From contig CAVXLD010000003.1 of assembly GCA_963762565.1 (NCBI GenBank), positions 544,001 through 608,000 on the forward strand: a stretch of 64,000 nucleotides of DNA, read 5' to 3'. Below the pieces are notes generated by a model that saw nothing but the letters and a program-made list of their open reading frames with translations, did not search any database and was not told the DNA's origin. The stretch comes from an uncultured Verrucomicrobiae bacterium (GTDB lineage: Bacteria; Verrucomicrobiota; Verrucomicrobiia; Chthoniobacterales; JAFAMB01). Positions 3,081 through 60,642 of the stretch are shown here, in pieces. A program made the position numbers and the translations under genes. Within the stretch, counting starts at the first letter, position 1. Each line of letters opens with the position of its first letter.

Positions 3081-3094
3081 AACGGTGCAGGCCT

Positions 3095-3137
3095 AAAAAA
3101 AATACAGCCCCCCGCATCCGCTGGATACGAAGGGCTG
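3095..3137 (-). terminator. Intrinsic terminator
   Basis: Minus strand CAGCCCTTCGTATC-loop-GATGCGGGGGGCTG followed by TA and T8. Confidence 0.8.
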
Positions 3138-3245
3138 CTGTTCCCCCCAGAACAATCCGAAAAAACTTTCATTGTGACAGTGCTACAGATTTTAGGGATT
3201 TCAAATGATTTGTTGTCGATTGTACCGCTAGGTTTAGTTGCATAT
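3095..3245 (-). ncRNA. Putative sigma54-dependent small RNA (or very short peptide mRNA)
   Basis: About 150 nt bounded by a -24/-12 promoter and a terminator, with only a 24-codon ORF contained inside. Confidence 0.5.
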
Positions 3246-3254
3246 TGCATGAAA

Positions 3255-3291
3255 TGCAACTTTTTCGCCAACTCGTCGTAACCTATTGATG
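3255..3291 (-). promoter_or_regulatory. Sigma54 -24/-12 promoter with adjacent IHF-like site
   Basis: Minus strand TGGCGAAAAAGTTGCA (GG-N10-GC) at 3270-3255; cATCAATAGGTTA at 3291-3279 fits WATCAANNNNTTR except at W. Confidence 0.6.
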
Positions 3292-3405
3292 GGGTGGTCC
3301 TTTGCCTAGCTCAAGAGCTGGCGATTTGAGTACATTTCATCCCTCTCATTGCTTTCCGATTTGCTGTCGCTTACCGATAGTCGTTAATTTTTAGCAGCAA
3401 ATCGC

Positions 3406-5064: not shown

Positions 5065-5069
5065 CCGCC

Positions 5070-5279
5070 AACCGCGAATGGATACGAATTGACGCGAAGA
5101 GCAAAGACGAACCGCAGATTTCGAAGACTCAAGGCAGGTTGATTATCCGCAGATTACGCAGATTTCGTTTTCAGGTTCCTATGTTGCCCAGGGTTACAGA
5201 AGACGTGACCGAGCCACAAAGATGTTTTTATCTGAAAAGCCGCGCCAAGTCCGAACCGTAATCTGCGTAATCTGCGGAT
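5070..5279. repeat. Nonamer-type palindromic element (CGCGAAT/CGCAGAT family)
   Basis: aaccgcgaatggatacgaat and ccgcagattacgcagat versus atctgcgtaatctgcgg. Confidence 0.8.
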
Positions 5280-5296
5280 GAATCCCTTCTTAATGC

Positions 5297-6133
5297 ATGG
5301 CTAGAGTAGCGACGACCAGTTCTGCGGTTCGGGTTTGGCGGGGTTTTCGACGCTGTTTTTGGCAATCGCCGGAGGAGCGCTTGATGCGGCCGGCGTGGTG
5401 GGCCGTCACCATCAATTGGGTATTGGCTTTCTTGCTTTTGTCTCTGGTGGCGTGGTTCGCGTTTGCCAGCCTGCGATACAATTGGAACTGGGATGCGGTG
5501 AGTAGCTACGCCGGTTTCTTTTGGAGGGGCTGGTTCACCACTATCGGAGTTTCCGCGGTCGCGTTGGTCCTGAGTACGGTGCTGGGCGTGGCGGTAGCCA
5601 TGGTGCGGCGCTCGGGTTTCTTTGTGCTAAGGGCGCTAGGGCGGATTTATGTGGAGACGCTAAGGGGGACACCGCTTCTGGTGCAGGTCTCTTTTGGATT
5701 CTATGTGGTGGCATCCGCGATTCATCTGGAGAACCGCCTGGTGGTAGGCGTGGCCACACTCGCGATCTGCTACGGCGCTTTTATCAGTGAGATTGTTCGC
5801 GGAGGAATTGAGAGCATTGGGGCATCGCAACTGGAGTCGGCGCGGGCGATCGGTTTGACCCGGGTCCAGACCTATCGATATGTGATTTTTCCGCAGGCTA
5901 TCCGTGTCATCCTACCGGGATTGGCCGGTATGTTCGCTTCGATGATTAAAGATTCATCGCTGCTCTCTGTGATTTCGATCGGAGAATTTACCTGGAGTGC
6001 GCAACAGGTTGGGGGACTGACCTATAGTCTGTTTGAAACCTATATTCCGCTGGCTGTTGGTTACCTGGTACTCACATTGCCAATTACGCTTTGGACTCAA
6101 TGGCTGGAGCGGAGGACCAAATTTGAAACTTAG
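5297..6133 (+). CDS. Polar amino-acid ABC transporter permease (GlnP/HisM family)
   Basis: RGTPLLVQ, EIVRGG...Q.ESARAIG and IKDSSLLS motifs. Confidence 0.95.
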   Translation: MARVATTSSAVRVWRGFRRCFWQSPEERLMRPAWWAVTINWVLAFLLLSLVAWFAFASLRYNWNWDAVSSYAGFFWRGWFTTIGVSAVALVLSTVLGVAVAMVRRSGFFVLRALGRIYVETLRGTPLLVQVSFGFYVVASAIHLENRLVVGVATLAICYGAFISEIVRGGIESIGASQLESARAIGLTRVQTYRYVIFPQAIRVILPGLAGMFASMIKDSSLLSVISIGEFTWSAQQVGGLTYSLFETYIPLAVGYLVLTLPITLWTQWLERRTKFET

Positions 6134-6180
6134 AAATGTAATGGAAGACCAGGCTCCTGAAAGCGTCGCGAGCCTGGCGC

Positions 6181-6432
6181 TTATTCGCTTGAATGAGACA
6201 CGGCATTCAACAGCGCTCCGGCTAGCTGAACTACAAATGCTGCGCCATATACTAATCCTTCGCCTAATTTGTCGCTGCGCTGTGACGGATTCATTTCAGT
6301 GATCCATGTCGAGATCCAGAACAGGAGAGAAGCCACATAGACAGGTAGGAGCACGAACTTCATGCTCCAATGCCACCACGCCGACAACCTCTGGAACATA
6401 GCCGACCTTCGGACAAAACCGAACCACGTCAA
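6181..6432 (-). CDS. Hypothetical small membrane protein
   Basis: 83-aa ORF with two hydrophobic stretches; it fills a gap inside an ABC gene pair. Confidence 0.35.
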   Translation of the reverse strand: MTWFGFVRRSAMFQRLSAWWHWSMKFVLLPVYVASLLFWISTWITEMNPSQRSDKLGEGLVYGAAFVVQLAGALLNAVSHSSE

Positions 6433-6463
6433 ATAAAGTTACGAGCAGACAAATTTCTAGAGA

Positions 6464-7195
6464 ATGAAACTTAGGATCCAGAATCTGAGAAAGAGTTTCG
6501 GCCAGCAAGTCGTGTTAGATAACATCTCGTTATCACTAGAAAAGGTCCATACCCTCGCGTTGATTGGTCCCTCGGGTGGCGGCAAATCGACGTTACTTCG
6601 CGTAATCGCAGGCCTGGAACGACCCGACCAAGGCGAGGTTTGGTTGAATGACAACGAGATCGTCTTTGAGGAAAAATTGCTGCGAGAGCATCGCCGCACC
6701 GTGGGAACGGTGTTTCAGAGCTTCAACTTGTTCCCGCATCTGACTGCGTTTGCGAATGTCACGTTGCCTTTGGAGAAGGTGCATCATCATGCGCCTCAGG
6801 AGGCTCGGATGATGGCGGAGGAGATCCTGGAGCGCTTTCAATTGATGGAGCACGCGCATAAGCAACCGGCTCAGCTTTCCGGTGGCCAACGGCAACGGAT
6901 CGCTATTGCGCGGGCGGTGGCGATACGGCCCAAGCTACTTTTGTTTGATGAACCTACTTCCGCTTTGGATCCCGAGATGACGGGTGAGGTGTTAGACCTG
7001 ATCGAGGAGCTCCGAGAAGAAGGCCGCGATTTTTTGCTGGTGACGCATCAGATGGGGTTCGCGCATCGGGTGGCTGATCAGATTGCGATCCTGAGCCAGG
7101 GACGGATCGTTGAGTGTGGCCCGCCTGCGCAGGTGCTGGATCAGCCGAGAGAGGAAGTGACTCGGCAGTTTTTGTCGAGGATCCTGAAATACTAG
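6464..7195 (+). CDS. Polar amino-acid ABC transporter ATPase (GlnQ family)
   Basis: [17 protein letters not shown] and FDEPTSALDPE motifs. Confidence 0.95.
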   Translation: MKLRIQNLRKSFGQQVVLDNISLSLEKVHTLALIGPSGGGKSTLLRVIAGLERPDQGEVWLNDNEIVFEEKLLREHRRTVGTVFQSFNLFPHLTAFANVTLPLEKVHHHAPQEARMMAEEILERFQLMEHAHKQPAQLSGGQRQRIAIARAVAIRPKLLLFDEPTSALDPEMTGEVLDLIEELREEGRDFLLVTHQMGFAHRVADQIAILSQGRIVECGPPAQVLDQPREEVTRQFLSRILKY

Positions 7196-7225
7196 GAGTT
7201 CGAGGAGTTCAAGGAGTTCAAGGAG
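7195..7225 (+). repeat. GGAGTTCAA nonamer array
   Basis: ggagttcgaggagttcaaggagttcaaggag; related arrays at about 7973 and 8998-9028. Confidence 0.75.
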
Positions 7226-7234
7226 AGGGCGGCG

Positions 7235-7846
7235 TTACTGCTCCTTTGTGGTTTTTGTACCCGCGGTGCTGCCGCCGTCTTTTACGCGGTCGCAATCGAT
7301 GGTCCAATTCGTTTCCCAGGTCTTACCTCCATCGGGCGAGAATGCTTGTTCCCATCGGTACGAGTCGAGGCTGTTAATCAGATAGAGATAGCGGACCAAA
7401 ACGGCTTTACCGTCGTAGATTTCGTAGTCGTAGAACTCACCTCGGCGGTCACCGACAAAACGGCCGACGGTCGGCGGCAAGCCTAAGCTTCCTTTTCTGC
7501 TGTTCGCAAAAAAGATGCTCCAAAGGCGGGTGCTCGGGTCGTAGAGCCGCAATGTTAACCCTTGGATGCGGCCGGCGGGATCATTGAACTCGTCTTCATC
7601 CATATTTGCGCGGCCGTCCCAGATTTTCTGGGCAACAGAAGTTCCGCCGAACTCGACCCAATTGTTCGAGCCGGTCAGCGGGTTGCGTAACCGTCGATTA
7701 TGAAGTTTCCAGGTGCCGATATTAAAATCGAAATCATGTTGGTCATCGCGATCCTGATTGATTGAGGTTGGCTGGTCTGCCCAAGCGATTAGCTGAATGC
7801 CTAGCAAAAAGAAGCTTAACGCGAAGAAGAGCCGGTGGAGTCTCAT
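7235..7846 (-). CDS. Secreted beta-rich hypothetical protein (DUF1579-like)
   Basis: Signal peptide; HDFDF..G.W and WEQAFSPDGGKTWETNW motifs. Confidence 0.7.
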   Translation of the reverse strand: MRLHRLFFALSFFLLGIQLIAWADQPTSINQDRDDQHDFDFNIGTWKLHNRRLRNPLTGSNNWVEFGGTSVAQKIWDGRANMDEDEFNDPAGRIQGLTLRLYDPSTRLWSIFFANSRKGSLGLPPTVGRFVGDRRGEFYDYEIYDGKAVLVRYLYLINSLDSYRWEQAFSPDGGKTWETNWTIDCDRVKDGGSTAGTKTTKEQ

Positions 7847-8245
7847 AGTTTGTTTTGATGACTGCGAAGAACGCCGGGTCGGCGATCTGAAATGTGGCTG
7901 GGAATTGGTAGCGAAAAATGTCCGCCCGGTAAATAGCCACTTCCTGCGGCTTCGATAAGGCCAATTATACTAGGAGTTCAAGGAGGGGCGTCTAGGGTCC
8001 TGGAGGGTTAGTGGGCGGAAAGAACCAGGTAGGTCCTGGCACGAATAGGACTCACAAGGCGCTTCGTTCTCGTTCTCGTCCTCGCCGTCGTCCTCGAATC
8101 CGGCCACGCGGAGTGATGGAGTGTGGGAGTGTTGGAGTACTGCGCCAAGTCCGAAAAGCACCCGCGTAGCGGGTTGGAGATGCTTATGAGACAGATAGGA
8201 CTTATAGGTCGCGTAAGTCCTATCTGTGATACGGCCCGAAGGGTT

Positions 8246-8989
8246 TTAGCTGCTGGCGTGTAGCGCTGAGCTTCCGCGCAAGAACTCTGCAACGAAAGGT
8301 GTAGCTGGGAAATCGTGTACTTCAGACGGGGTACCGATCTGCTCGATCTGAGCGTGGTTCATGACGACGACGCGATCAGCTAGATCGAGCGCTTCTTCCT
8401 GGTCGTGAGTGACGAAGATCGTTGTGATCTTCAACTCTTGTTGCAGGGTGCGAACCCAGGCGCGTAATTCTTTGCGCACCTTGGCGTCCAGGGCGCCAAA
8501 AGGTTCATCGAGGAGGAGAATGCGAGGCTTGATGGCAAGGGCTCGAGCCAAGGCGACTCGTTGGCGTTGACCGCCGGAGAGCTGGTGAGGGCTGCGATCT
8601 TCGAAACCGGACAACCGGACCAAGCGCAACAGTTCACTGACTCGGTCCTGTATTTCGCGCCGGCTCATTTGAAACTGGCGGCGGTTTACCTCGAGACCGA
8701 AGGCAACATTTTTGGCCACGCTCATGTGCCGAAACAAGGCATAATGCTGAAAGACGAAGCCAACGCGGCGTTTTTGGATCGGGAGCGAAGTGGCATCGAC
8801 GTCATCAAACAAGATGCGACCGGAATCCGGAAAATCGAGCCCGGCCACTAACCGGAGCAGCGTGGTTTTTCCGGAGCCGGAAGGGCCAAGCAAGGCTACT
8901 AGCTCGCCGTCATCGACGTTCAGAGAAACGCCATCCAACGCGCTAATAGCGCCAAATCGCCGGACTAGTTGTTTTGCTTCGATGCGCAT
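8246..8989 (-). CDS. cysA: Sulfate/thiosulfate ABC transporter ATPase, short form
   Basis: Walker [11 protein letters not shown] and [16 protein letters not shown]; operon context. Confidence 0.92.
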
Positions 8990-9039
8990 TCTTGGAAGGA
9001 GTTAGTTCAAAGGAGTTTAGGAGTTCAGATTGGTTTGAA

Positions 9040-9894
9040 TCAGCCGGGGACGAGATCGGGTCTGCGCCAAGTGAGAAATCCTTTGATCATGAGGGTGAAA
9101 AGGGCGAGCAATGTGAGCAGCGACGCAACGGCGAAAGCGCCAACGTAATCGTAGTCGTTGTACAAGACCTCGACGTGAAGAGGGATGGTATTGGTGAGCC
9201 CCCGGATATGTCCGGACACCACGGAAACCGCCCCGAACTCGCCCATGGCGCGTGCGTTACACAAGATCACGCCATAGAGAATGCCCCAGCGCGCCTTGGG
9301 CAAAGTGATCCGCCAAAAGGTTTGCCACCCGTTGGCGCCTAAGGAGAGCGCGGCTTGTTCTTCGTCGCTACCTTGGGATGTTAGCAGCGGTATCAGCTCA
9401 CGAGCGACAAACGGAAAAGTGACAAAGATGGTAGCGAGCACGATCCCCGGAACAGCAAAAATGATTTTAATGTTCCAGGCGCTAAGCAGGGGTCCGAACC
9501 AGCCGCGAGCGCCGAATAGCAGAACAAACACCAGACCGGATGTGACCGGTGAAATTGAGAACGGCAGATCGATGAGAGAAATGAGAACCGTCTTACCGGG
9601 GAAGTTAAACTTAGCAACGGCCCAAGAGGCGGCGACGCCAAAAATCAGGTTGGCGGGGACTGCAATTGCAGCGACCAGCAGGGTAAGCTGAATGGCAGAC
9701 AACGATGCTGGCTTCGCGAAAGCCGCCAGGTAGCCGGTAATGCCCTTTTGGAAAGCTTCAAAGAACACGGCCAAGAGCGGGACTAGCAGGAATAAGATCG
9801 CGAAAGCGACCGCCGCGACCAGAAGGACTGCTTTCACTATCCAGGGATCGCGGACAGCAGGATGGCTAATGGGAATCGGACTGGTGTTTTCCAT
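9040..9894 (-). CDS. cysW: Sulfate ABC transporter permease CysW
   Basis: DLPFSISPV and NARAMGEFGAVSVVSGHIRG motifs. Confidence 0.95.
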   Translation of the reverse strand: MENTSPIPISHPAVRDPWIVKAVLLVAAVAFAILFLLVPLLAVFFEAFQKGITGYLAAFAKPASLSAIQLTLLVAAIAVPANLIFGVAASWAVAKFNFPGKTVLISLIDLPFSISPVTSGLVFVLLFGARGWFGPLLSAWNIKIIFAVPGIVLATIFVTFPFVARELIPLLTSQGSDEEQAALSLGANGWQTFWRITLPKARWGILYGVILCNARAMGEFGAVSVVSGHIRGLTNTIPLHVEVLYNDYDYVGAFAVASLLTLLALFTLMIKGFLTWRRPDLVPG

Positions 9895-9897
9895 CGT

Positions 9898-10752
9898 TTA
9901 AGCAAACTCGCCCCGGAGTTTTCCCCAGCGCTGCAACCCATTGATGAGGAAAAGTAAGATTAGCGAAACAACGAGCATCATCACCGCGATGACCGTGGCT
10001 TCGGTATAATGGAACTGATCAAGCTCCATCATGATCAGCAGCGGTACGATCTCGGTTTTCATCGGCATATTACCGGAGATGAAAACGACCGACCCGTATT
10101 CCCCAAGCGCCCGGGCAAATGCCACGGTGAAGCCGGTGAGAGCGGCCGGGATCAGCTCAGGAATGACGATCCGAACAATAGTCTGGAGGCGTGATGCTCC
10201 TAAGCTAGCCGCTGCTTCTTCAAACTCGATATTGAGATCCGCCAATACGGGTTGAACCGTTCGGACCACAAAGGGGAAGCCAATAAAAACGAGCGCTAGA
10301 AAAATGCCCATCGGAGTAAAGGTCAATTTCCAACCGGTGAGCATCTGAACGGGGCCACCAATCCAGCCGTTCGCTGAATAAATGGCGGTCAGAGCGATAC
10401 CGGCAACCGCTGTGGGCAATGCGAACGGAAAGTCCACAATGGCATCTAAGAATCGACGGCCGGGAAACCGATAACGGACCAATACCCAGGCCAGGATTGT
10501 ACCCAAGAATATGTTGACCAATGCAGCGTAGAACGAGACCGAAAAGCTGAGTTGAAAAGCGGCCAGAACCCGCGGGTTCAAGATGGTGGCGATGAATCCG
10601 TCAAACCCGATCCCGGACGCCTTGATGAAAAGCGCCGCTAGCGGGATCAGGACAATCAGACTCAGGTAAACAAGCGTAAACCCCAGGCTCAAACCGAACC
10701 CGGGAAGGACTTGGCGCCGCCACCAGAGACTGAAGGGAACAGAATTGGTCAT
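9898..10752 (-). CDS. cysT: Sulfate ABC transporter permease CysT/CysU
   Basis: [20 protein letters not shown] and GEYGSVVFI motifs. Confidence 0.95.
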
Positions 10753-11756
10753 TTAGGTTGGTAGATCTGATCGAAGATGCCGCCGTCAGCGAAGAACTTG
10801 GGTTGCGCAGACTTCCATCCGCCAAAGAACTTATCGATCGTAAACATCTCGATATTTGGGAATTGTTTGCTGTACTTCGCGTAGATCTGGGGATCGATCG
10901 GCCGATAGAAATTCTTGGCAATGATCTCTTGGCCAACTGGAGTGTAGAGATATTGCAGGTAGGCCGTGGCAGCGTCGCGGGTTCCTTTTTTGTCCACCAC
11001 CTTATCCACTACCGCTACCGGAGGTTCAGCCAGGACACTGACCGACGGATTGACAATCACGAATTTGTCTGCCCCAAATTCTTTGAAGCTAAGATAGGCT
11101 TCGTTCTCCCAAGCAATGAGAACATCTCCCAGCTCCCGTTGCACAAAGGTAGTGGTTGATCCGCGCGCACCGGAATCTAGCACCGGAACATTCTTATAGA
11201 GGGCGGTAACAAACTCTTTGGCTTTGGCTTCGTCATTCTGATTGGCTTTCAGCGCGTAACCCCAGGCCGCGATGAAATTCCATCTGCCTCCGCTAGAGGT
11301 TTTCGGGTTTGGCGTGATGACCTGGATGCCCGGTTTAATCAGGTCCGGCCAATCCTTTATCCCTTTTGGGTTCCCCTTTCTGACCAGGAGCACGATGGTG
11401 GAAGTGTAGGGGCAGCTATTCTGCGGAAATTTCGCCTGCCAGTCAGAGGCGACGAGGTTTCCATTGTCGTGAAGGGCATCGATATCTGCGGCAAGACCCA
11501 AGGTCACGATATCGGCTTCAAGTCCGTCGATCACTGATCGAGCCTGTTTGCCCGAACCTCCGTGAGACTGGTCTATCACAACCTGTTTACCGGTCTTACT
11601 CAGGTAATCCTGGGCGAAGGCCTGGTTAAATTCTTCGTAGAGTTCGCGAGTTGGATCGTAGGAAACGTTGAGGAGATGGATGGCGTCTGCCGACACATGG
11701 GTTACAAGCGTGCCGACAAGAGAGAGAATGGCGAGACATCGGAGGAGCGATCGCAT
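10749..11756 (-). CDS. sbp: Sulfate-binding periplasmic protein
   Basis: [22 protein letters not shown] and PNPKTS motifs; signal peptide from ATG 11756. Confidence 0.95.
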
Positions 11757-11864
11757 AAAGAACCCGACCAAATGCATCGGGATTAGAGAAAAGCATACTC
11801 TTTTGATCGGGTAAAGCCGAAATGGTCGGGCCTTTTAGGTTTTAGCGGTCGATGCTGCCGCGCG

Positions 11865-12184
11865 GTGTGTGATCACACAGCACCTGGAGGGGAGCCGCTT
11901 TGTCATGTATCAGGCGACCCTCGCGATTTCGTCTCAGCGCTCCATTCGGAGAAAGGATATTGCAGCGGGCGGCTCCCGAGAATAGCCCAGGGCGAATGTG
12001 TGAACCCCGGGGTTTGGGACCGTTTACGCGCGGCTACAGAGCAGCGAATCGCTGGGTCGTTCGTGGGAGCCGCCTGTTCTCACATGTCTTACCTGGACGA
12101 ATGATGAGGCGAAGTGTGCGAGGGTGACAAGATGTGCGCCAAAGCGGCTCCCCTCCAGGCTCCGGGCGTGTGACTCAACACACG
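11865..12184. repeat. About 320-bp palindromic element with TGGAGGGGAGCCGCTTTG ends (copy 1)
   Basis: Terminal and inner inverted repeats; homologue at 20058-20368. Confidence 0.85.
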
Positions 12185-12611
12185 GCTTTGCCGACGCACC
12201 GGAAGGGACTCAAAAAACAAAAGGATCGAATCGTATTTTTTGCCGGGCTAGGCTTCATTGAGCGCGGATGAACAAACACTGAGTACGCTCCTGGAGAAGC
12301 CGGAGACTGCGCCGGCAATTCAGGCGCAAGTCGTCGCGCTGCGAGGCCGTGCCCCAGCCTAAAGGTTTATTTTCATCTGCGATCACAAATAGGTCCGCGG
12401 CTTCACTAACAGCGGATCGCGAGCACGCGATCCCTCTCGGGTTTGGGTTCGCGCTGTATCGGAGGTGATGGTTTCTGATGTCGGTCCGGGCGAGGTAGCA
12501 AATCAGGGGGCGCGGCTCGGCGGCGTAGAGGCCGAACGCAATCATGGGCGTCAAATGGGCGCGGAGCGTTGCGACCGTTTCGAGGTTACATTGGAGCCTC
12601 GCCCTACCAGG

Positions 12612-13127
12612 CTACGATTCCAGCACCTCGAGCTCGGCGCCTTCTTCGGGGCGAAGCGCTTTGGCGGCAAATGGCAACGGGACTTTATCTCGCCGCATTT
12701 TGCGAAGCGTAACCTCGACGATTTGAGCCAGGGTAAACCGATCCAAAATGTTGGCGATGGCATTGCGAACGTCAGACATGAGCATCCGTAACCCACAATG
12801 CTCTTCGTCCGGACAAGTACAACGCTCGTAGGCCATTTGGCTCACGCAGGCGATCGGCGCGAGCGGTCCGTCGATTAATCGGACCACATGACCGATGACA
12901 ATCTCTTCCGGAGGTTTGGCGAGGAGGTAACCGCCATGTTTGCCACGGCGACTATCCAAATAGCCTGCTCCTTTGAGCTGCATCAGGATTTGCTCCAAAA
13001 ACTTGACGGGCAATTCTTCCTTAGAAGCGAGTTCATTCACTTGGAGAAGCGGCTTACCGAGTGCTTGTGCCAGCCCAAAATCAATCAGCGCCCGGAGGGC
13101 GTACTCGCCCCGCTTAGAAAGTTTCAC
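12612..13127 (-). CDS. Rrf2-family transcriptional regulator (IscR/CymR-like) with Cys cluster
   Basis: MKLSKRGEYALRAL, SRRGKHGGY and C-x8-C-x-C-x5-C. Confidence 0.93.
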   Translation of the reverse strand: MKLSKRGEYALRALIDFGLAQALGKPLLQVNELASKEELPVKFLEQILMQLKGAGYLDSRRGKHGGYLLAKPPEEIVIGHVVRLIDGPLAPIACVSQMAYERCTCPDEEHCGLRMLMSDVRNAIANILDRFTLAQIVEVTLRKMRRDKVPLPFAAKALRPEEGAELEVLES

Positions 13128-13202
13128 GATTGGCTATATTACCTTGCCACAGAGGGAAAAACAACACCTGGCAGGCGAAAGTTGCAGTGGGAGCTCTTTA
13201 TT

Positions 13203-13221
13203 GTTGCAAGTAAGTTGCAAC
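13203..13221. promoter_or_regulatory. Fur-family (Zur-like) operator
   Basis: Palindrome GTTGCAA-GTAAG-TTGCAAC, 16 bp before a metal-binding protein gene. Confidence 0.6.
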
Positions 13222-13237
13222 GGGAGAATGTTTCGCG

Positions 13238-14131
13238 ATGGGCCGTGCCTTCGCCTCTTTTTGCGTCTGTTTTCTCGTCTTTTCAACCCCTAAACTGCAG
13301 GCCGAAATCAAGGTCGCTTCTTTCTCCACTGTTCTCACGGAAATTGCACAGAAAGTGGGCGGGAAGGATGTGACGGTCGCCGGTCTGATCAAACCCGGGC
13401 AGGATCCACACGAGTACCAATTAACGCCCGGAGACCTGAACGCGGCGTCGACAGCCGATCTCGTTCTCTTGAGCGGAAAAGGGATGGAAGCGAGCTATTT
13501 GCAGAATCTGAGTGACGCTTTGCCGAAGCATGTGCAAGTGCTGACGGTTGGTGACAAACTTCCTAGTTTAACCAGGCCGACTGACGAAGAGAAAGAGGCC
13601 CAAAAAGAAACGACGCAAGATCCCCACTGGTGGAATAGCGTCTCGGAAACGGAAAAAGCGACGGTGATTGTGCGGGATGCGTTGATACATCTAGACGGGC
13701 AGCACACTGCCGATTATCTAGCCGGAGCGCAGGCTTATCTGACCGCGCTCAAGGAGCTCGATTCATGGGTCAGACGGAAGGTGGCGGAGCTTCCGCGCAA
13801 TCAGCGTAAATTGGTGACTTCGCACGACGCGTTCCAATACTTTGCGAAAGATTACGGGTTTCAGATCGACTCAATCGAGGGCATGACAACCGATCAGGAA
13901 CCGTCTGTCAGCCATGTGACCGGGTTGATCGCGGAGATCAAGAAGCAGGGGGTAAAAGCGATCTTTTTGGAGAACACGCTTAACCCGAAGGTGAGTGTGG
14001 AGATTACTCGCGAAAGCGGGGCGAAAATTGGCGGTAGCCTTTATGCCGATGGATTGGGGCTGGGGGACGGCGCGACGTACGCCAGCATGTTCCGGCATAA
14101 CGTCAACACGATCGTCGACGCTCTGAAATGA
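13238..14131 (+). CDS. Zn/Mn ABC transporter substrate-binding protein (TroA/ZnuA family)
   Basis: DPHEY, DPHWW and HDAFQY metal-ligand motifs. Confidence 0.95.
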   Translation: MGRAFASFCVCFLVFSTPKLQAEIKVASFSTVLTEIAQKVGGKDVTVAGLIKPGQDPHEYQLTPGDLNAASTADLVLLSGKGMEASYLQNLSDALPKHVQVLTVGDKLPSLTRPTDEEKEAQKETTQDPHWWNSVSETEKATVIVRDALIHLDGQHTADYLAGAQAYLTALKELDSWVRRKVAELPRNQRKLVTSHDAFQYFAKDYGFQIDSIEGMTTDQEPSVSHVTGLIAEIKKQGVKAIFLENTLNPKVSVEITRESGAKIGGSLYADGLGLGDGATYASMFRHNVNTIVDALK

Positions 14132-14547
14132 GGGGATCGCCACTGGCCCAGGCGGTTTTGGTAGTAGCTGTCCTTTTGCTATTGTTGATTCCGCTGCATC
14201 GTCTCACAAAAAGAGAACAAAGGCCTCCCGAGCGTCCGGTCGTTTCATCGCCTGAGAAACAGGTGCATCTGGCCATGAGGACCACCGCGGTGCCATGCCG
14301 ATTTAAAATTACATTTTTGGGGAAGACATTGTGGGCGGAAGAAGCCACGACTCCCGAGCTGGCAAAGGATTTCGATATTGATTTTCCCAAGGAAGGAATT
14401 GACCTGGTGGTGGATGCAGCCTGGCAGACTCAAGCTTTAGCGGCGATCGAGATCACGTTGTCGTTACCGGACGGGACTGCGATACATAAGACGCTATGGG
14501 GCCAAGGAACGGCGAGCGACGTCGTCACGTTCAGAGAAGATGAATAG
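14128..14547 (+). CDS. Hypothetical membrane-anchored protein in metal ABC operon
   Basis: ATGA overlap with the upstream gene; N-terminal TM helix. Confidence 0.7.
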   Translation: MRGSPLAQAVLVVAVLLLLLIPLHRLTKREQRPPERPVVSSPEKQVHLAMRTTAVPCRFKITFLGKTLWAEEATTPELAKDFDIDFPKEGIDLVVDAAWQTQALAAIEITLSLPDGTAIHKTLWGQGTASDVVTFREDE

Positions 14548-14604
14548 CCGCGAAAACTTGTCGCGCCGTAGCTGGCGAAGGCGGAAGGCGCAAAAAGCAA
14601 AAAA

Positions 14605-15345
14605 GTGAAACCTGAGCACGTTTTGGCAATCAAAGATCTGACGGTCAGTTATCGCCGAGTTCCGGCGGTGCATCATGTCGATCTAAGGCTGCATTGCGGA
14701 CGGTGTGTCGGGTTGTTGGGGCCGAACGGAGCCGGTAAGACATCGTTTCTGAAAGCGCTGGCGGGTTTGGTACCCATGGAGACCGGCACCATCGAGTTTG
14801 GCGGCCACAATCACAAGCAAGGGCCAGGAAGTTACACAGCCTACCTGCCGCAAAGATCCGCGGTCGATTGGGATTTCCCTACCACGGTTAGAGGCCTGGT
14901 GGAAATGGGCCGCTACTCAGCTTTAGGCTGGTGGAGGCCGTTTCGAGGAATCGACCGGGAAAAAGTTGATAAGGCCCTTGAAGCAATGGAGCTGGTCGAT
15001 CTGGCCGAAAGACAAATCAGTGCGTTGTCCGGGGGCCAACAACAACGAGCTTTTCTTGCTCGCTCCTTGGCCCAAGATGCGCACGTTTTCTTGCTGGACG
15101 AGCCATTTACCGGGCTGGACCGGCCCTCGCAAGATCTGTTTGGCCAGATCTTGAAAAGGCTGGCTGGGCAAGGGAATCTCTTAATTGTCTCGCATCACGA
15201 TCTAAGGATGGTGCCCACGCTGTTTGACGAGGTTATCTTGTTGAACGGAGAGCTCGTGGCATACGGTCCGACCGAGCAAGCGTTCAGTGAAGACACCATC
15301 GGGCGAACGTTCGGAACGCACACTTTTTCCGGAGCAAGCACCTGA
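14605..15345 (+). CDS. Zn/Mn ABC transporter ATPase
   Basis: GPNGAGKT, YLPQRS.VDWDFP and LSGGQQQR motifs. Confidence 0.95.
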   Translation: MKPEHVLAIKDLTVSYRRVPAVHHVDLRLHCGRCVGLLGPNGAGKTSFLKALAGLVPMETGTIEFGGHNHKQGPGSYTAYLPQRSAVDWDFPTTVRGLVEMGRYSALGWWRPFRGIDREKVDKALEAMELVDLAERQISALSGGQQQRAFLARSLAQDAHVFLLDEPFTGLDRPSQDLFGQILKRLAGQGNLLIVSHHDLRMVPTLFDEVILLNGELVAYGPTEQAFSEDTIGRTFGTHTFSGAST

Positions 15346-16235
15346 TGTCGAACGGCTGGCTGCACCTCTTCTACGCGCAGGATATGTTGCGTCCGCTCTT
15401 TGCGGCGGTTCTGATCGGGTTCACTAACGGCGTTTTAAGTGTTTTCGTCGTTCTGCGCCGGCTTTCGTTGATGGCGGACGCGATATCTCATTCGCTATTA
15501 CCGGGTTTGGCGATCGCCATTCTTCTTTTTGGGCTGGCGCCGGCTACGCTGGTGGCAGGCGCTTTTCTGGCGGCGCTTTTGGTTGCGCTAGGCACCCAGA
15601 TTATCGCCAATAGCACCCGGATAAAAGAAGATACCGCTCTGGGCTTGTTGTTCGCTTGTGCGTTCTCGTTAGGGCAAGCATTGTTAAGGCTAGCTCCGGC
15701 ACAGATCGGGATTACAGAATACCTTTTCGGCAATATCCTGGGACTTAGCGATGGCGACCTGTACTTAACCTATGGGATCACGTTCTTTGTGCTTCCGCTG
15801 TTGGTGCTGCTCCAGCGGCCATTCCTTCTGATGTTGTTCGAGCCGTCAATCGCTTCGACCCAAGGAGTCCCGGTCAGAACCCTGAAATATCTCTTAATGG
15901 TTGTGCTGGTGCTGGCAATGATTTCTTCGTTGCGCGCGGTGGGAATCATCCTTGCCTTGGGAACATTGATCGGGCCGGCCGCAACCGTTTATCTCTTTGT
16001 GGATTCCTTTTCGGTCATGTTCTGGCTAAGCGGTTTGCTTGGCGCCTTCGCATCGCTACTAGGGCTATTGGTCTCTGATTGGACCGATCTACCAGCCGGA
16101 GCATGTATCGTGTTGGTGCTGGGAATCTTATTTCTGGCAAGCTACCTCTTAAGCCCCCGTTACGGGCTGCTCCGCCGTTTGCGTAAGGGGCATTTCCACG
16201 CGCAATCGCTGGCGAGATGGGGAGGTGAGAAGTGA
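15345..16235 (+). CDS. Zn/Mn ABC transporter permease (ABC-3)
   Basis: DAISHSLLPG, EDTALG and LFGNILG motifs. Confidence 0.95.
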   Translation: MSNGWLHLFYAQDMLRPLFAAVLIGFTNGVLSVFVVLRRLSLMADAISHSLLPGLAIAILLFGLAPATLVAGAFLAALLVALGTQIIANSTRIKEDTALGLLFACAFSLGQALLRLAPAQIGITEYLFGNILGLSDGDLYLTYGITFFVLPLLVLLQRPFLLMLFEPSIASTQGVPVRTLKYLLMVVLVLAMISSLRAVGIILALGTLIGPAATVYLFVDSFSVMFWLSGLLGAFASLLGLLVSDWTDLPAGACIVLVLGILFLASYLLSPRYGLLRRLRKGHFHAQSLARWGGEK

Positions 16236-16388
16236 GATGTGAGAGGTGAGAAGTGATTGGTGGCGGAGGGTGATGGCCCGCAAAACGGACATCATTCTCG
16301 TCTGTCACGGATCACACTGTTCCCACTGTGATTCGGCACGGCCGCTGACTACCTCTCACTTCTCACCTCTCACTTCTCACTTCTCACA
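16225..16388. repeat. Inverted GTGAGA(A/G) heptamer arrays overlapping both convergent stop codons
   Basis: gtgagaagtgagatgtgagaggtgagaagtg versus cctctcacttctcacctctcacttctcacttctcac. Confidence 0.85.
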
Positions 16389-17010
16389 CGAGGGTTTCTC
16401 GCGCGGCACGAAACAGGAGGTTAACCGAAGTCGATCCCGGATCCTGGTGGCCGATGCTTCGTTCGCCGAGATAGCTGGCGCGGCCTTTTTTGGCAAGCAA
16501 CGGGACGGTGCTTTCCATTCCTTTTTCGGCGGCGTTAGACGCTGCTAACAGGGCATCCGCAAATGGTTTACCGGATTTCAGTGTGGCTTGATAGGCTTCA
16601 ACCGCCGGCTGGAGAGCGTCTACCATCGTCTTATCGCCGAGGGCAGCTTTACCGCGCTGGAGGATCCCGGCTAGCGCTTTCTCGAGGAGGAGGCCGAATT
16701 CTTCTGCGGAGATTTCAGACTTGCCTCCGGCCGCCATGGAGGCCTGTAGAAAAAAGGTGCCATAGAGCGGCCCGCTGGCTCCGCCGACTGTGGATAAAAG
16801 AGTCATCGCTACGGTCTTGAGGACTGTGGTGATATCTTTACCCTCGAGCTCGGACTTTTTTGCCAACACGGCTTGAAACCCACGATCCATATTGGCTCCG
16901 TGGTCGGCATCTCCGATCGCGGCGTCGAGTTGGGTAAGATAATCTTTGTTTTCGGCTAGAAGCCCCGTAAACCGTTCCAACCAACGAATTACCTGTTCGG
17001 AAGTGACCAT
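16384..17010 (-). CDS. dhaL: Dihydroxyacetone kinase ADP-binding subunit DhaL
   Basis: LDAAIGDADHG.N, GGASGPLYG and GRASYLGERSIGHQDPG motifs. Confidence 0.95.
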   Translation of the reverse strand: MVTSEQVIRWLERFTGLLAENKDYLTQLDAAIGDADHGANMDRGFQAVLAKKSELEGKDITTVLKTVAMTLLSTVGGASGPLYGTFFLQASMAAGGKSEISAEEFGLLLEKALAGILQRGKAALGDKTMVDALQPAVEAYQATLKSGKPFADALLAASNAAEKGMESTVPLLAKKGRASYLGERSIGHQDPGSTSVNLLFRAARETLV

Positions 17011-17053
17011 AGAAGCAGAAATTTGACCACAAACCCGCGAAGACACAAAGCCG

Positions 17054-17233
17054 AATCTAAACCGCGAATGGATGCGAAAACGGAAAGCGAACCGCAGCCC
17101 CGAAAGTCTCCGGGGTGAAATTAACGCAGATGTACGCAGATTAGAGTCAGTGGCGTGGACGAAACCCAGGCCAAAATCTGCGTAAATCTGCGTCCATCTG
17201 CGGTTAGATTTTTATTCTCGTCTATTCGTGGTT
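17054..17233 (+). repeat. CGCAGAT nonamer-family palindrome, copy A
   Basis: Near reverse complement of 17649-17840, including the loop. Confidence 0.85.
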
Positions 17234-17340
17234 AGCCTTCATCTCTTTGTGCCTTTGCGGCGAACATTGATTGTGGGCAGGGATCGGGAAAATGGGTTGC
17301 TTTCGGATTTGGGGAGGGGTTTTATCGCAAGGGAGACGCT

Positions 17341-17619
17341 ATGATTTTCTTCGAGATCCTAGGCGCGATAGTGATTGGCTTTCTAGTCGGGGCATTAGCG
17401 AAACTGATTGTTCCGGGTCGGGAGCGTGGGGGCTGTTTGACCACTATATTAATCGGAATCGCTGGTTCGTTTGTCGCCTTTTTTATCGGCACGTATTTCT
17501 TTGAACACAAATTTACGAGCAGTAACCCACTTCAACCGGCAGGATTCATCTCCTCACTGCTCGGGGCGATTCTGATTCTCGCCATTTATCATTGGATCCG
17601 CCGGCGCCGACAGAAGTAG
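17341..17619 (+). CDS. GlsB/YeaQ/YmgE family stress-response membrane protein
   Basis: IGFLVGALAKLIVPG...G...TILIGIAGS...GAILIL; SD-like GGGAG upstream. Confidence 0.9.
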   Translation: MIFFEILGAIVIGFLVGALAKLIVPGRERGGCLTTILIGIAGSFVAFFIGTYFFEHKFTSSNPLQPAGFISSLLGAILILAIYHWIRRRRQK

Positions 17620-17648
17620 CCAAAATTTCACGCGAGAAACCCTAAGAC

Positions 17649-17840
17649 TAACCGCGAATGGACACGAATGAACGCCAATAAAAGCGAAACCGCAGCCCCG
17701 AAATTCTCCGGGGTGAAATGGACGCAGATTTACGCAGATTTTGGATTCGGCTTCGACTACGCCATTGACTCTAATCTGCGTACATCTGCGTTAATCTGCG
17801 GTTCGGTTTTCCGTTTTCGCGTCCATTCGCGGTTTAGATT
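17649..17840 (-). repeat. CGCAGAT nonamer-family palindrome, copy B
   Basis: Inverted copy of A. Confidence 0.85.
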
Positions 17841-17845
17841 TTGTC

Positions 17846-18460
17846 TTATCGGTAAACCGTTACCGGGGTCCCGAGTGCGACATTGGCGAAGAAAATCTGG
17901 GCCATTTTGCCGGGCATGCGGATGCAACCGTGGGACGCTGGATAACCGGGCAGATAGCCTTCGTGCATGCCGACTCCGCCCGTGATCCGCATGAAATAAG
18001 GCATCGGAGCGCCTTTGAAGATAGCTCCGGGAGGTTTTGGGTCTTTACCCAGTTCGACATCTTTCTGAATCATGTTGCCCTGGGCATCGACGTAGTCACC
18101 GTAAAGACTGGAGGCGTGATTCACGTCCTTTTGGATGATCTTATAACTTCCAGGCGGGGTATCATGACCCTCCCGGCCAGTCGAGAGCTGGGACACGCCG
18201 ACAAGTTGGCCGCCTTTATAAAAATAGGCGCGTTCTTCACTGAGATGGATCTCTACCGACGGTGCGCCAGCTACTCCATCACCGTCCCAATAAGAAATCG
18301 GATCGTATCCGGATGTTCCTTGAGAAGCGGCAGAACCACTTGTTGCCGCTAAATAAGGAGTATTCGGGTTGTTCAGGCGAGAGGTTTCACCATTTTCACA
18401 CCCCGCTACAAAAGCTACCAAAACGGCGACAGCCGCGAAAACTCTTAGACTCATAAACAA
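17846..18460 (-). CDS. L,D-transpeptidase (YkuD family) lipoprotein
   Basis: Lipobox VAGC; STG...TP.G and GMHEG...ASHGCIRM catalytic motif. Confidence 0.92.
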   Translation of the reverse strand: MFMSLRVFAAVAVLVAFVAGCENGETSRLNNPNTPYLAATSGSAASQGTSGYDPISYWDGDGVAGAPSVEIHLSEERAYFYKGGQLVGVSQLSTGREGHDTPPGSYKIIQKDVNHASSLYGDYVDAQGNMIQKDVELGKDPKPPGAIFKGAPMPYFMRITGGVGMHEGYLPGYPASHGCIRMPGKMAQIFFANVALGTPVTVYR

Positions 18461-18529
18461 CGACGAAAGTTCAATAATGGTCTTAGACTAAAAGGTCAAG
18501 TATGCGGAGGAGCCAGGGGAGAGAATCTA

Positions 18530-18673
18530 GGTGATTAGTGATTGGTGATTGGTTACTGGGACGTGGACGGTCGCAAAATGGGCAACAGCGAAACCCTATA
18601 CTTCACATAAGTCCCATTGGCCGTGTGGCTCCACCACCAATCACCGATCACCAATCACTAATCACTAATCACC
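18530..18673. repeat. Inverted GTGATT(A/G) heptamer arrays
   Basis: ggtgattagtgattggtgattgg versus ccaatcactaatcactaatcacc. Confidence 0.85.
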
Positions 18674-18739
18674 CTCCCCGGCTCGTACCCGTCATTGCCT
18701 CAGCCTGCGCCATCTGCTATATGAAGTCTCGTTAGAGCT

Positions 18740-19075
18740 ATGCCGACGTACGAATACCGCTGCGAGAAGTGTAACGAAACGTTCGAATTGTTTCAATCCA
18801 TGAAGGATGACGCGCTGCAGGTTTGCCCGCAGCAGCAGTGCCGGATGGAAACGTGGGGTCAAGGGAAAGTGAAGCGGTTACTTGGTACCGGCGCAGGTCT
18901 TATCTTCAAGGGCTCAGGATTTTACATCACAGACTACAGGAGCAAAAGCTACACTGAGGCTGCCAAAAAGGAGAGCGGCAGCAAAGAAAGCGGCGGGGCC
19001 AAGACTGAGAGTAGCGCCCCGAAAACCAGTCAAGAAAAGAGTTCAGGCGGAAGCACCTCAAAGTCCGAAAGTTAG
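18740..19075 (+). CDS. FmdB-family zinc-ribbon protein
   Basis: MPTYEYRCEKC...CP...C and FKGSGFYITDY motifs. Confidence 0.92.
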   Translation: MPTYEYRCEKCNETFELFQSMKDDALQVCPQQQCRMETWGQGKVKRLLGTGAGLIFKGSGFYITDYRSKSYTEAAKKESGSKESGGAKTESSAPKTSQEKSSGGSTSKSES

Positions 19076-19250
19076 GTCTCTATTGCAGGAATCAGTAAGT
19101 CAGTGATCATCAGTAATCAGTTGCACAGCCTTGACTGAAGACCGGGTGTCGTTTGCCGGAACCGATTCACCGATTACTGATTACTTAATCAATTGGGATC
19201 ATAGACCATAACTCGGGCGTGACCAATACGGTCGCGACCGATTCGTAGGT

Positions 19251-20003
19251 ATGTCCGGGAAGTCGACCAAGCCGCCTGCGGAGAAAGAAAGCGGTGGCAG
19301 TGCCCCTGCTAAACCTAAAGCATCGAAGGAATCGCCCAAGGCTTACACTGCATCGCCCAAGGCTTACACTGCATCGCCCAAGGCTACAGCGGCATCGCCC
19401 AAGGCTACAGCGGCATCGCTGGAAAAGTTTGACGCTGGTCTCCGACATTTTCTGAATCGAGTCGTTGGAGTCCTCATTGCCAGCTTCTTAGTCGGCTGCC
19501 TGATCACAATTTGCGAGGCGCCGGAGGGATTGCCGGCACCCCAATCTGCAGGGAATGGGCTTGCCGTGATGCAGGTGATTGCCCAGGCCAAAGCGTCGCG
19601 GGGCAGTGATGTGGCTGAGCTAGCCCAGGGCGAAATAAACGATTATTTGGCGCAACGGACGGCTCCACGCGGTTTTCTGTTCGATAATATCAGCCGCTTC
19701 GATGGCGTGGTCATTTCTTTTCAGCCAGGGGTCTGCTTGGTCTTCACCCGGTACTCGATTTTTGGTTACCCGATTTATCTAAATGGCCGGTACAGCGCGC
19801 GGGAAGACTTCGGGCGACCCGCATTCGACAACCGCGGCGGCGCAATCGGCCGGCTAGCAATCGCGCCGGCATTCATGCGGATAGTCCAGTACCCATTCTT
19901 TGGGGAGCTCTGGAACGGGTTCGGTATCGAGCGAGAAACGCTTAATCGATTCCGCAAAGTGGAGTTCGAGAAGGGTTTGGTGAGGCTGGAACCGGAGCAG
20001 TAA
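19251..20003 (+). CDS. Hypothetical single-pass membrane protein with SPKA(Y/T)(T/A)A repeats
   Basis: 250-aa ORF; 21-bp tandem repeat; TM helix. Confidence 0.7.
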   Translation: MSGKSTKPPAEKESGGSAPAKPKASKESPKAYTASPKAYTASPKATAASPKATAASLEKFDAGLRHFLNRVVGVLIASFLVGCLITICEAPEGLPAPQSAGNGLAVMQVIAQAKASRGSDVAELAQGEINDYLAQRTAPRGFLFDNISRFDGVVISFQPGVCLVFTRYSIFGYPIYLNGRYSAREDFGRPAFDNRGGAIGRLAIAPAFMRIVQYPFFGELWNGFGIERETLNRFRKVEFEKGLVRLEPEQ

Positions 20004-51414: not shown

Positions 51415-51672
51415 AGTGGACGAAGTGGACCTAGTTGACGGAGTGGACCTAGTGGAGCACGCGCTGCCTCGCACTCTACACGTTGGCGACGCCAGTGGCG
51501 TCCACTCGTCCACTCAGTCCACTCCGTCCACAGTGTCTACTCTGTCCACTAATCTTCTCCCCTTTCGGATCTGCGTAAGTCCGCGTTCATTTCACCCCGG
51601 AGAATTTCGGGTCTGCGGTTAAAATTGTTGTGTCCCGTGTTTATTCGGGTTCATTCGTTTCCATTCGCGGTT
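51415..51672. repeat. Inverted GTGGACnnA nonamer arrays plus a CGCAGAT/CGCGAAT family arm
   Basis: gtggacgaagtggacctagttgacggagtggac versus gtccactcagtccactccgtccac. Confidence 0.82.
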
Positions 51673-60118: not shown

Positions 60119-60642
60119 AAACCGCGAATGTACACGAATGGATCCGCCTGCGCCAAGCCTACGGCGCGACAGGCTGCGAAGTTAAGCCAAAGTGGGGTGG
60201 CACGTCGAGGGCGGAAAATTCAACCGCAGCCCCGAAATTCTCCGGGGTGAAATGGACGCAGATTTACGCGGATGGCGCGGAAGGATGCCGAACTTGTGGA
60301 GCGTGCCTCGCTTGCGAGGCCGTGGTAACCAGGGCGAGATTGTGAGCACGTCTCTGCGCGATCTGCACTCTGCGAATTTCGATCGGAGAATTGTCCCTTG
60401 TTTAGCATGAAGCCAAAGTCGGTGATGACCTGGCGAGAACCGTACTCGCCCGTCGCGACTGCGCTACAGAGCGCAGACTGCGCAGTGGCCCACTCCATTC
60501 ATTTCCCCGCGTCACCACGGCCTCGCAAGCGAGGCACGCTCCACAAGTCGACATCCGGCGGTTCACCTATCTGCGTAAATCTGCGTCCATTTCACCCCGG
60601 AGAATTTCGGGGCTGCGGTTGAAGCTTTGGCCTCTCGCGGTT
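60119..60642. repeat. Three-level nested palindrome
   Basis: Outer AACCGCGA/TCGCGGTT, middle 60222-60621, inner 60293-60548. Confidence 0.85.

Follow-up and report, generated by a model that had tools for sequence, protein, structure and literature searches.

In 2008, repeats of about 20-30 nt were described from cyanobacteria that come and go precisely within other repeats, without an established mechanism. The small dispersed repeats SDR1-8 of Nostoc/Anabaena, 21-27 nt in length, were reportedly termed 'very small mobile repeated elements' by Elhai et al. in that year. Here an insert of the same size class is described, a 22-nt hairpin (the 22-mer) that is present at or absent from a fixed position within intergenic palindromes of an uncultured Verrucomicrobiae bacterium (order Chthoniobacterales). 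The DNA analyzed (the window) is a 64,000-nt stretch, positions 544,001 to 608,000 of contig CAVXLD010000003.1, which corresponds to G000:C3:544001-608000 in assembly GCA_963762565.1 (G000; 6.1 Mb, 15 contigs). Judged by description, the 22-mer resembles the cyanobacterial repeats in being hairpin-like, nested in tandem short words or other repeats, and placed at one exact position within its host word; SDR5 is inserted between nt 3 and 4 of HIP1 according to the available text of PMC4390886, and cyanobacterial small dispersed repeats are also cited in the available text of PMC3116915. The phylum and the sequence are different, the host words here being 9-10-mers of the CGCAGAT type, and for the present insert a candidate enzyme gene framed by the hairpin was identified. 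What is new is the conjunction of clean filled and empty sites for a 22-nt hairpin in three kinds of host repeat with a burst limited to one lineage and with a candidate partner, a mini GIY-YIG gene that lies at a tRNA and is framed by the hairpin.

The Ssn nucleases are the second system to which this insert may be compared. According to the available text of Chenal et al. 2025 (PMC11893778), SsnA is a 94-aa protein that binds its hairpin only as single-stranded DNA and in an orientation-specific manner, and for which the 3 nt upstream and the base immediately following the palindrome are required; cleavage takes place a few nt upstream. In the same text the ssnA gene is flanked by NTS hairpins, and the NTS-ssnA-NTS arrangement is likened by the authors to an insertion sequence and also to REP/RAYT. 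The Ssn hairpins measure 20-30 nt, occur in tens to hundreds of genomic copies, and are clustered in places. Neither filled and empty sites nor evidence of movement is given in the available part of that paper (PMC11893778).

In the available text of Di Nocera et al. 2013 (PMC3733652), most REPs are defined by an unpaired GTAG or CGTC tag at one end of the palindrome, and some families, such as the GTAG-23 REPs of T. roseum, have palindromes as their regular insertion sites, with empty copies of these palindromes also present. The GTAG tag is read by TnpA-REP (Messing et al. 2012, PMC3479197), and the replicative unit of a REPIN is an inverted doublet (Bertels & Rainey 2011, PMC3116915), again as given in the available portions of these papers. 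The REP/REPIN-RAYT repeats and the 22-mer are both short extragenic high-copy hairpins for which mobilization in trans by a hairpin-binding nuclease has been proposed. The GTAG/CGTC tag and the association with a RAYT are lacking in the 22-mer, which occurs mostly as single copies and not as inverted doublets (of 34 detectable partner arms, 28 are empty and 6 filled).

The 22-mer has the sequence CCCCGAAA(T/G)TCTCCGGGGTGAA and, as single-stranded DNA, is predicted by DNA folding to form a hairpin (-4.4 kcal/mol) in which a 5-bp stem encloses an 8-nt loop and is followed by a 4-nt tail. Searching the window for CCCCGAAAKTCTCCGGGGTGAA with up to 2 mismatches returned five matches (0.00 expected from 100 shuffles), which were free of mismatches at 17098, 17696, 60230, and 60591 and had one mismatch (first base A) at 51591. 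A search for the empty site AACCGCAGAT returned three matches (0.14 expected). All of the five filled and three empty sites listed in an initial annotation of the window, made from the sequence without database searches, were recovered in this way. Each insert in the window is bounded by ..CCGCAG on the left and AT.. on the right. The junctions are fixed (G|C at the left, A|A at the right) and cannot be shifted; because the junction bases differ, the boundary is unique, and there is therefore no target duplication, in agreement with the initial annotation.

Host arms consist of AACCGCGAAT/GGACACGAAT-type words on the outside, followed toward the center by AACCGCAGAT, NNACGCAGAT, and a second NNACGCAGAT. 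Host element A, an intergenic palindrome at 17060..17233, has arms of CGCGAAT-type and CGCAGAT-type 10-nt words. Its left arm carries the G variant of the insert (CCCCGAAAG..) at 17098..17119 (+ strand), filling the outermost word AACCGCAG|AT, while the corresponding AACCGCAG|AT site of the right arm is empty (17196..17205, - strand). In the predicted fold (z -7.0), element A forms one long hairpin from which the 22-mer branches off laterally. Host element B (17650..17834) is an inverted twin of A, with the insert located in the arm that is empty in A: the T variant fills the left arm at 17696..17717 (+), and the right arm is empty (17794..17803, -).

Element A (+) and the reverse complement of B were found to be collinear over their full length, including the non-palindromic loop and the outer flanks, with a mean column identity of 81%. 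The sole large differences were two reciprocal 22-nt gaps, one per arm, which bears out the initial description of A and B as inverted twins with the insert in opposite arms. The filled/empty arm pair of A and B is the third most similar among 188 arms. Loop inversion of one ancestral copy had been named at the outset as an explanation that would make independent events unnecessary. Since A and reverse-complemented B are collinear in both loop and flanks, loop inversion cannot account for the opposite-arm inserts and was excluded. Recombination between A and B was set aside by reasoning, as it would leave the fill pattern unchanged.

A genome-wide count of filled and empty sites, as suggested in the initial annotation, was carried out in G000. 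The 22-mer has 81 matches at ≤ 4 mismatches (30 of them exact), and the empty site AACCGCAGAT occurs 209 times, where about 11 occurrences are expected from base composition. When arms having at least one further word were counted, 45 of the 188 arms with a 10-nt period (AACCGCAG) were filled, compared to 4 of the 149 arms with a 9-nt period (ATCCGCAG). Sites of the form CAG|22-mer|A(T/A) numbered 60 at ≤ 4 substitutions, of which 55 occupied the outermost word and 5 an inner one, and the orientation of the insert relative to the host word was invariably the same. Blunt ligation of a free duplex was rejected for this reason, as it would yield both orientations. For the 18-nt hairpin core alone (≤ 3 substitutions), 71 of 95 matches were preceded by CAG, and the tails of these 95 cores were mainly TGAA (44), TAAA (23), and TTAA (5). 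These counts confirm a very small unit with exact, invariant boundaries and a fixed orientation to the short motif CAG|.

Beyond the two families of word arms, a third unrelated host of the form CCTAGG..CCTAGGCTAAAATCT..CAG|CGCTTCGCGCC carries a close variant of the insert (..ATGC..TAAA) in 13 copies, and 9 CAG-type copies of this host are empty. The insertion point in this RAYT-associated repeat reads ..TCAG|CGCTTCGCG. No association of the third host repeat with particular genes was found. A RAYT-like Y1 gene (G000 C9:102253-102588) is flanked by empty copies of it, CCTAGG..CCTAGGCTATCTTGAGTCAC|CGCTTCGCGGC, and the third host is therefore probably a REPIN-like repeat belonging to that gene. 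One hybrid arm (C5:58421) has the AACCGCAG left flank joined across the hairpin to the right flank of the third host. Insert variants track the host family, with TGAA in 10-nt arms, TAAA in 9-nt arms, and ATGC..TAAA in the third host. Across 215 copies, a set that carries ascertainment bias for foreign loci, loop bases 6-8 (AAA) and 11-13 (CTC) as well as the stem were near-invariant, and only positions 9, 10, and 20 were variable.

Among filled arms with a detectable partner (n = 34), the partner was empty in 28 cases and filled in 6; for 26 more filled arms no partner was found. Partner arms have rare insert variants in common. By host-flank similarity, the nearest neighbor was also filled for 18 of 45 filled arms (10.5 expected, P 0.03), a weak clustering that, taken by single flank, gave P 0.08 upstream and P 0.0065 downstream. 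Mean flank identity of filled arms was not raised in any of five flank windows (P 0.06-0.90). Flank types did not differ between filled and empty arms, except that GG was overrepresented as first spacer in filled arms (23/45 vs 35/143, p 0.0014). Taken together with the A/B twins and the orthologous filled/empty pairs described below, the empty partners establish that the 22-mer has been gained or lost independently many times. In place of the monophyletic presence that would have spoken against this claim of the initial annotation, only the weak clustering on host-arm similarity was observed.

The distribution across relatives places the insert later than its host. Among 31 genomes, the 22-mer at ≤ 1 mismatch was found in four, all of one genus (G000, 48 copies; G004, 22; G003, 6; G002, 2), and in none of G001, G005, and the 25 genomes of other genera. 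Empty arms AACCGCAGATNNACGCAGAT (≤ 1 mismatch) numbered 127, 102, 108, and 179 in G002 to G005, respectively, and 1 in G001; with so many empty arms in relatives that have few inserts, the host repeat is older and wider than the insert. It is highly improbable, then, that the host repeat possessed the 22-mer from the start as an optional module, inherited by element copying and repeatedly lost by deletion. Such a history would agree with the weak clustering of filled arms on host similarity and with the conserved filled orthologs, but in G005 no 22-mer was found at ≤ 1 mismatch beside 179 empty arms, the junctions hold no direct repeat to guide an exact 22-nt deletion, the insert occurs in unrelated hosts and inner words, and the A/B twins require at least two events. 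The distribution across relatives largely refutes the ancestral module.

Filled arms are unevenly distributed along the genome. Within C12:480-526 kb, 11 of 18 arms were filled, compared to 34 of 170 elsewhere (p 4e-4), and 24 filled arms had a filled neighbor within 5 kb (13.7 expected); the spread of the 22-mer is therefore dependent on proximity. In this 46-kb region (G000 C12:480000-526000) nearly each intergenic gap holds a filled arm. When 31 of its predicted open reading frames (ORFs) of ≥ 90 aa were compared to Pfam, all matches were ordinary metabolic or transport families, and no transposase or nuclease was among them.

A search of the G000 genome for GIY-YIG domains located P0001, an 84-aa single-domain gene at G000:C1:180032-180283 (Pfam E 8e-14), directly downstream of tRNA-Lys(TTT). 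On both sides the gene is framed by incomplete tRNA-Lys copies that carry a hairpin in place of the anticodon arm. This cassette hairpin, CCCCGAAAGCTTTCGGGG, is placed directly after ..GTAGAGCAG (..GGTAGAGCAG) of the partial tRNA and is followed by TTGG. In the downstream partial tRNA copy, a second hairpin of about 23 nt is nested in the first, and in G015 the inner hairpin is reversed. The same locus layout was found in G004, with two tandem genes (80-81% identity). Homologs with 42-62% identity were present in 19 further genomes of the order, often in the same layout beside tRNA genes (..AGAGCAG|CCCCGA..TCGGGG|TTGG). One DUF559 match was also found, within a 396-aa frame.

Across 19 homologs, residues Y5, Y15, R25, H29, and E62 were invariant and N70 nearly so. 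The structure model of P0001 (pLDDT 90.9) had UPF0213 BH0048 and Slx1 as its best fold matches, the sequence matched 1zg2 (E 2e-5), and a scan of P0001 against NCBIfam returned nothing above cut-off. Slx1 is a structure-specific nuclease acting on branched DNA. From its residues and its model, P0001 looks like an active nuclease. As compared to SsnA, it is likewise a single-domain GIY-YIG protein of about 90 aa (84 vs 94), with Tyr, Tyr, and Glu at positions 5/15/62 that correspond to 6/17/64 of SsnA, and its gene is likewise framed by a multi-copy hairpin; for SsnA, oriented flanks outside the palindrome matter. The SRM/NTS consensus (CGTC ATTCCC..GGGAAT type) is, however, unrelated to the CCCCGAAA..CGGGG hairpin, and P0001 lies beside tRNA-Lys, whereas tRNA is not mentioned in the available text of PMC11893778. 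A literature search at title and abstract level for GIY-YIG proteins with hairpin repeats or for tRNA-linked miniature elements gave, among the entries listed, no such cassette and no link to tiny inserts besides PMC11893778.

The cassette hairpin and the 22-mer have in common the preceding CAG|, the first 8-9 bases (CCCCGAAA), the last 5 bases (CGGGG), and a following T. The forms observed can be arranged in a series of single substitutions from AGCTTT (cassette) through AGCCTT (G098), AGCCTC (G000 C7:642443 and G004), and AGTCTC (window 17098) to ATTCTC, and an exact cassette hairpin with a TGAA tail is present in a 9-nt-word arm at C7:345309. Of 151 genomes of the order, 15 contained CAGCCCCGAAANNNNYCGGGGT: 13 of these were among the 21 in which a P0001 homolog was found, and the other 2 were among the remaining 130 (Fisher p 1e-11). 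Copies numbered 53 in G000, 32 in G004, 11 in G080, 5 in G098, and 1-2 in the others. Dozens of copies were found only in G000 and G004; most of the other genomes have 1-11, located at the nuclease gene or close to it apart from a few solo copies elsewhere, all of them after CAG|. Within the genus, a close P0001 ortholog was found only in G000 and G004. In G001, G002, G003, and G005, with 0, 2, 4, and 1 copies, respectively, GIY-YIG matches were only 38-59% identical and some were short (genome completeness 78-95%). On the strength of these resemblances, the 22-mer may well derive, as a solo copy, from the hairpin of a mini GIY-YIG (Ssn-like) nuclease cassette, a reading held with roughly even confidence. 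The hairpin would have escaped the cassette and multiplied in this genus, landing precisely 3' of CAG in the repeat words of palindrome arms and in the RAYT-associated repeat.

A further step, that the 84-residue GIY-YIG nuclease mobilizes the 22-nt hairpin and that the two together form the smallest known trans-mobilized bacterial DNA element, is offered tentatively, as a possibility that is still rather doubtful. In such a scheme, the 'home' of the hairpin would be the anticodon-arm position of a tRNA gene copy, and solo hairpins would colonize any accessible ..CAG| site in repeat words. The copying route proposed within the main reading itself is the following. By analogy to the Ssn nucleases, the enzyme would bind the folded hairpin, nick at or near CAG| when the arm is single-stranded, or both. 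The freed 3' end at CAG could then pair with another filled arm through the common AACCGCAG, be extended over the hairpin and sometimes over the next few bases, and return within the ACGCAGAT words. The outcome would be a clean 22-nt gain in an empty site, with an occasional change of the first spacer. Copying of such short tracts would account for the spacer change at 60591 (see below) and for the GG excess, and the route would also explain rare jumps to hosts that share only CAG.

Several points weigh against this origin and this role of the nuclease. Of the 18 core positions of the main 22-mer, 4 are different in the cassette hairpin (3 when the comparison is with the G variant at 17098), and the cassette hairpin is followed by TTGG, whereas the 22-mer is followed by TGAA or TAAA. 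The link between P0001 and the 22-mer is one of sequence resemblance and co-occurrence, and the Fisher value overstates the support because the 13 double-positive genomes are kin that fall in two families only (9 in one, 4 in the other). CAGCCCCGAAANNNNYCGGGGT was not found in 8 of the 21 homolog-bearing genomes, some of which have other hairpins in the same layout, and G002, G003, and G005 (95, 78, and 81% complete) carry 2, 4, and 1 copies with no close ortholog found. The flank analyses barely distinguish templated copying from clean insertion, the first spacer alone being biased. The nearest solved relatives of P0001 are UPF0213 and Slx1. Finally, a nuclease cannot join DNA, and the copying step would thus need host functions.

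Orthologous sites provided a further view of gain and loss. The last 47 kb of contig G031:C6 are 95-99% identical to G000 C3:563817-604341; the match is limited to these 47 kb, and elements A and B lie outside it. It covers a 523-bp composite host element at 60120..60642, which has both arms filled in G000 and further nested repeats inside. The inserts are located at 60230..60251 (+, left arm) and 60591..60612 (-, right arm), and the two arms are identical across the insert and the nearest flanks. In G031 the left arm is also filled (G variant) and the right arm, orthologous to 60591, is empty (22-nt gap), with flanking alignments that are 96-98% identical; the spacer beside the insert is ATGGAC in G000 vs ATTAGAC in G031. 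The insert at 51591..51612 (-, first base A) lies in a right-hand host arm at about 51569-51672, and the orthologous arm of G031 is empty, with its inner part replaced. The rest of the G031 genome is without the 22-mer, and the end of G031:C6 (loci L094-L110, 326 kb) is an inverted duplication of 58.4-61.8 kb of the window; this contig looks like a chimeric or mis-binned one.

A metagenome scan returned 119 stretches, all of which were compared by BLAST and most of which were 77-90% identical to G000. The only near-identical stretch, L152 (98% over 584 bp), is filled in both. Filled sites with an empty counterpart in G000 were L215 (vs C5:248962; with identical flanks over 10 nt to the left and over 37 nt to the right of the insert), L036/L211 (vs C12:383450; 9-nt family, inner word), both arms of L045 (vs C12:407798/408057), and the right arm of L212 (vs C5:372427). 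The left arm at this last locus is filled in all three genomes, with a locus-specific C variant common to them. The filled state has been kept at orthologous C5:372082, C5:109506, C9:77818, and C5:337332, where the flanking genes are 78-88% identical. At two further orthologous CGCAG|AT sites, the relative has the 22-mer and G000 has a different 32-nt CCTGTCGCGCCGTAGGC-type module (L037 vs C5:119892; L227 vs C13:130927).

Enzyme-free copying is the main rival to mobilization by the nuclease. It would consist of ectopic gene conversion or template switching between arms that share AACCGCAG and AT..ACGCAGAT words, with the resemblance to the cassette hairpin reflecting common descent and having no function today; it is regarded as unlikely, though a serious contender. 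The filled arm at 60591 differs from its empty G031 counterpart by an adjacent 1-nt indel and a substitution, in flanks that are otherwise 96-98% identical, and the identity of the two composite-element arms across insert and nearest flanks fits the same process. So do the enrichment of the GG spacer by inserts, the downstream nearest-neighbor result (P 0.0065), the agreement of insert variants with host family and of rare variants between partner arms, the regional clustering of filled arms, and the swap of the 22-mer for another module at L037 and L227. However, the homology on the left is about 8 nt only, and similarity among filled arms on the upstream side does not exceed chance. The three hosts have only CAG| in common, and inserts are also found in inner words. 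Arm-to-arm correction should give symmetry, whereas 28 of 34 partners are still empty, and the fact that copy number follows the presence of a close nuclease ortholog is left unexplained. Of the gene-conversion tract suggested in the initial annotation, there remains weak support from the GG spacer enrichment and from the one orthologous case with changed adjacent bases, set against flank identity that is not raised.

Selection offers a different account, in which the hairpins are kept because the nuclease, or some other protein, binds or cuts at them, in the manner of the NTS sites that modulate transformation in Neisseria. Their distribution would then mirror the places where such sites are of use and not a selfish spread. 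It is judged quite unlikely. The near-invariance of loop bases and stem in the 215 copies is what it would predict, subject to the ascertainment bias for foreign loci, and the filled state is conserved at the four orthologous loci listed above. The clustering of 22-mers in C12:480-526 kb also resembles that of NTS around genes in Neisseria, as given in the available text of PMC11893778. Against it, the insert shows no orientation bias relative to co-directional neighboring genes (14 sense : 14 antisense), and it is present in all classes of intergenic gap. A scan of the whole window at the Rfam gathering threshold returned 0 matches, and the filled or empty state flips between close relatives. 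Selection moreover concerns the maintenance of the hairpin rather than its arrival and is compatible with either copying model. A role as terminator was considered unlikely given the absence of a T run.

IS200/IS605 elements transpose by 'peel and paste', a strand-specific process with a lagging-strand bias, and are roughly 30-60 times larger than the 22-mer. The initial annotation pointed to this type of transposition on the ground that the 22-mer is inserted next to a short motif without duplication. Its placement 3' of that motif, its constant orientation, and its hairpin are likewise in line with such elements. The insert would then be a minimal IS200/IS605- or REP-like unit moved in trans as single-stranded DNA by a Y1 (HUH) transposase or RAYT. 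Y1_Tnp matches number 13 in G000, and the third host repeat flanks the RAYT-like gene at C9:102253. None of these 13 genes, however, has a 22-mer within 2.5 kb, a single loose, diverged hairpin-like match (2 mismatches) lying 1.8 kb from one of them, and the hairpin core was found at 0 of 15 Y1 gene loci of five relatives (G001-G005). The 172 foreign 22-mer loci (497 kb) hold one sizeable Y1-like ORF and one short fragment, and Y1 genes also occur in G001 and G005, which have 0-1 copies of the insert. Five RAYT-sized genes in G000 have their own, different flanking repeats. The tag of the 22-mer is TGAA/TAAA (TTCA on the other strand) instead of GTAG or CGTC, and there is a single hairpin in place of two distinct ends. 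No replication-orientation bias was seen relative to local GC skew (28:22, p 0.48; a weak test in a 15-contig assembly). Y1 transposition of the 22-mer is accordingly very unlikely, and the link to IS200/IS605 was not supported.

The case for a mobile 22-mer is carried by filled and empty sites at three levels, namely the arms of one element, paralogous elements, and orthologs ranging from near-identical to about 80% identity, and by a short target rule (3' of CAG) that is common to unrelated hosts. A specific, testable candidate enzyme is available, and within the genus its close ortholog was found in G000 and G004, the genomes in which the hairpin multiplied. If the proposed mobilization is correct, the engine of 'very small dispersed repeats', sought since 2008, would be mini GIY-YIG nucleases, and the hairpin repeats of Ssn type would count as mobile DNA, beyond regulatory sites. 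The results also bear on how the layered intergenic palindromes of these soil bacteria are constructed.

Additional features of the window and of related repeats were recorded. A third empty AACCGCAG|AT site, at 5110..5119 (+), belongs to the left arm of a further host element (about 5070-5330). A 92-aa ORF at 17341-17619 (+) lies exactly between the inverted twins A and B. The gaps flanking its orthologue hold different word-palindromes in five same-genus genomes (G001-G005), which marks these gaps as hot spots of repeat turnover; only the A-gap of G005 has a related element, empty and in the opposite orientation. When Logan contigs were compared to positions 1-20000 of the window, none of the pieces listed spanned 17006-17957 (elements A and B), and no 22-nt gap at 17098 or 17696 was seen among the matches listed. 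Joints such as 17205>17814 had sides of about 22 nt and were repeat-derived.

Another nested module of about 30 nt (CCTGTCGCGCCGTAGGC..GGCGG type) is located within the composite element at 60144..60173 (-), after ..CGCAG and before AT... This second module (about 30-32 nt) has about 250 matches genome-wide, for example at C3:521801-521897, C5:119892, and C13:130942; it is nested in many different repeat words and also builds tandem arrays. At G000 C3:873390, the tip of a host palindrome without CGCAGAT words is formed by the 18-nt hairpin alone, in the arrangement AACCGCAG|hairpin|CTGCGGTT, with the 4-nt tail absent. Outside this phylum, an exact 22-mer variant (..ATAC..TGAA) was found in seven records titled Rhodobacteraceae and relatives (L040, L055, L056, L058, L061, L070, and L076), where it could be a chance match (about one is expected in 596 Gb by our own estimate) or a member of a related hairpin family. 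In these records the variant is part of a conserved unit, ..TTTTGG|22-mer|TGGCC..CAGAGGGGCAGAGCCCCT.

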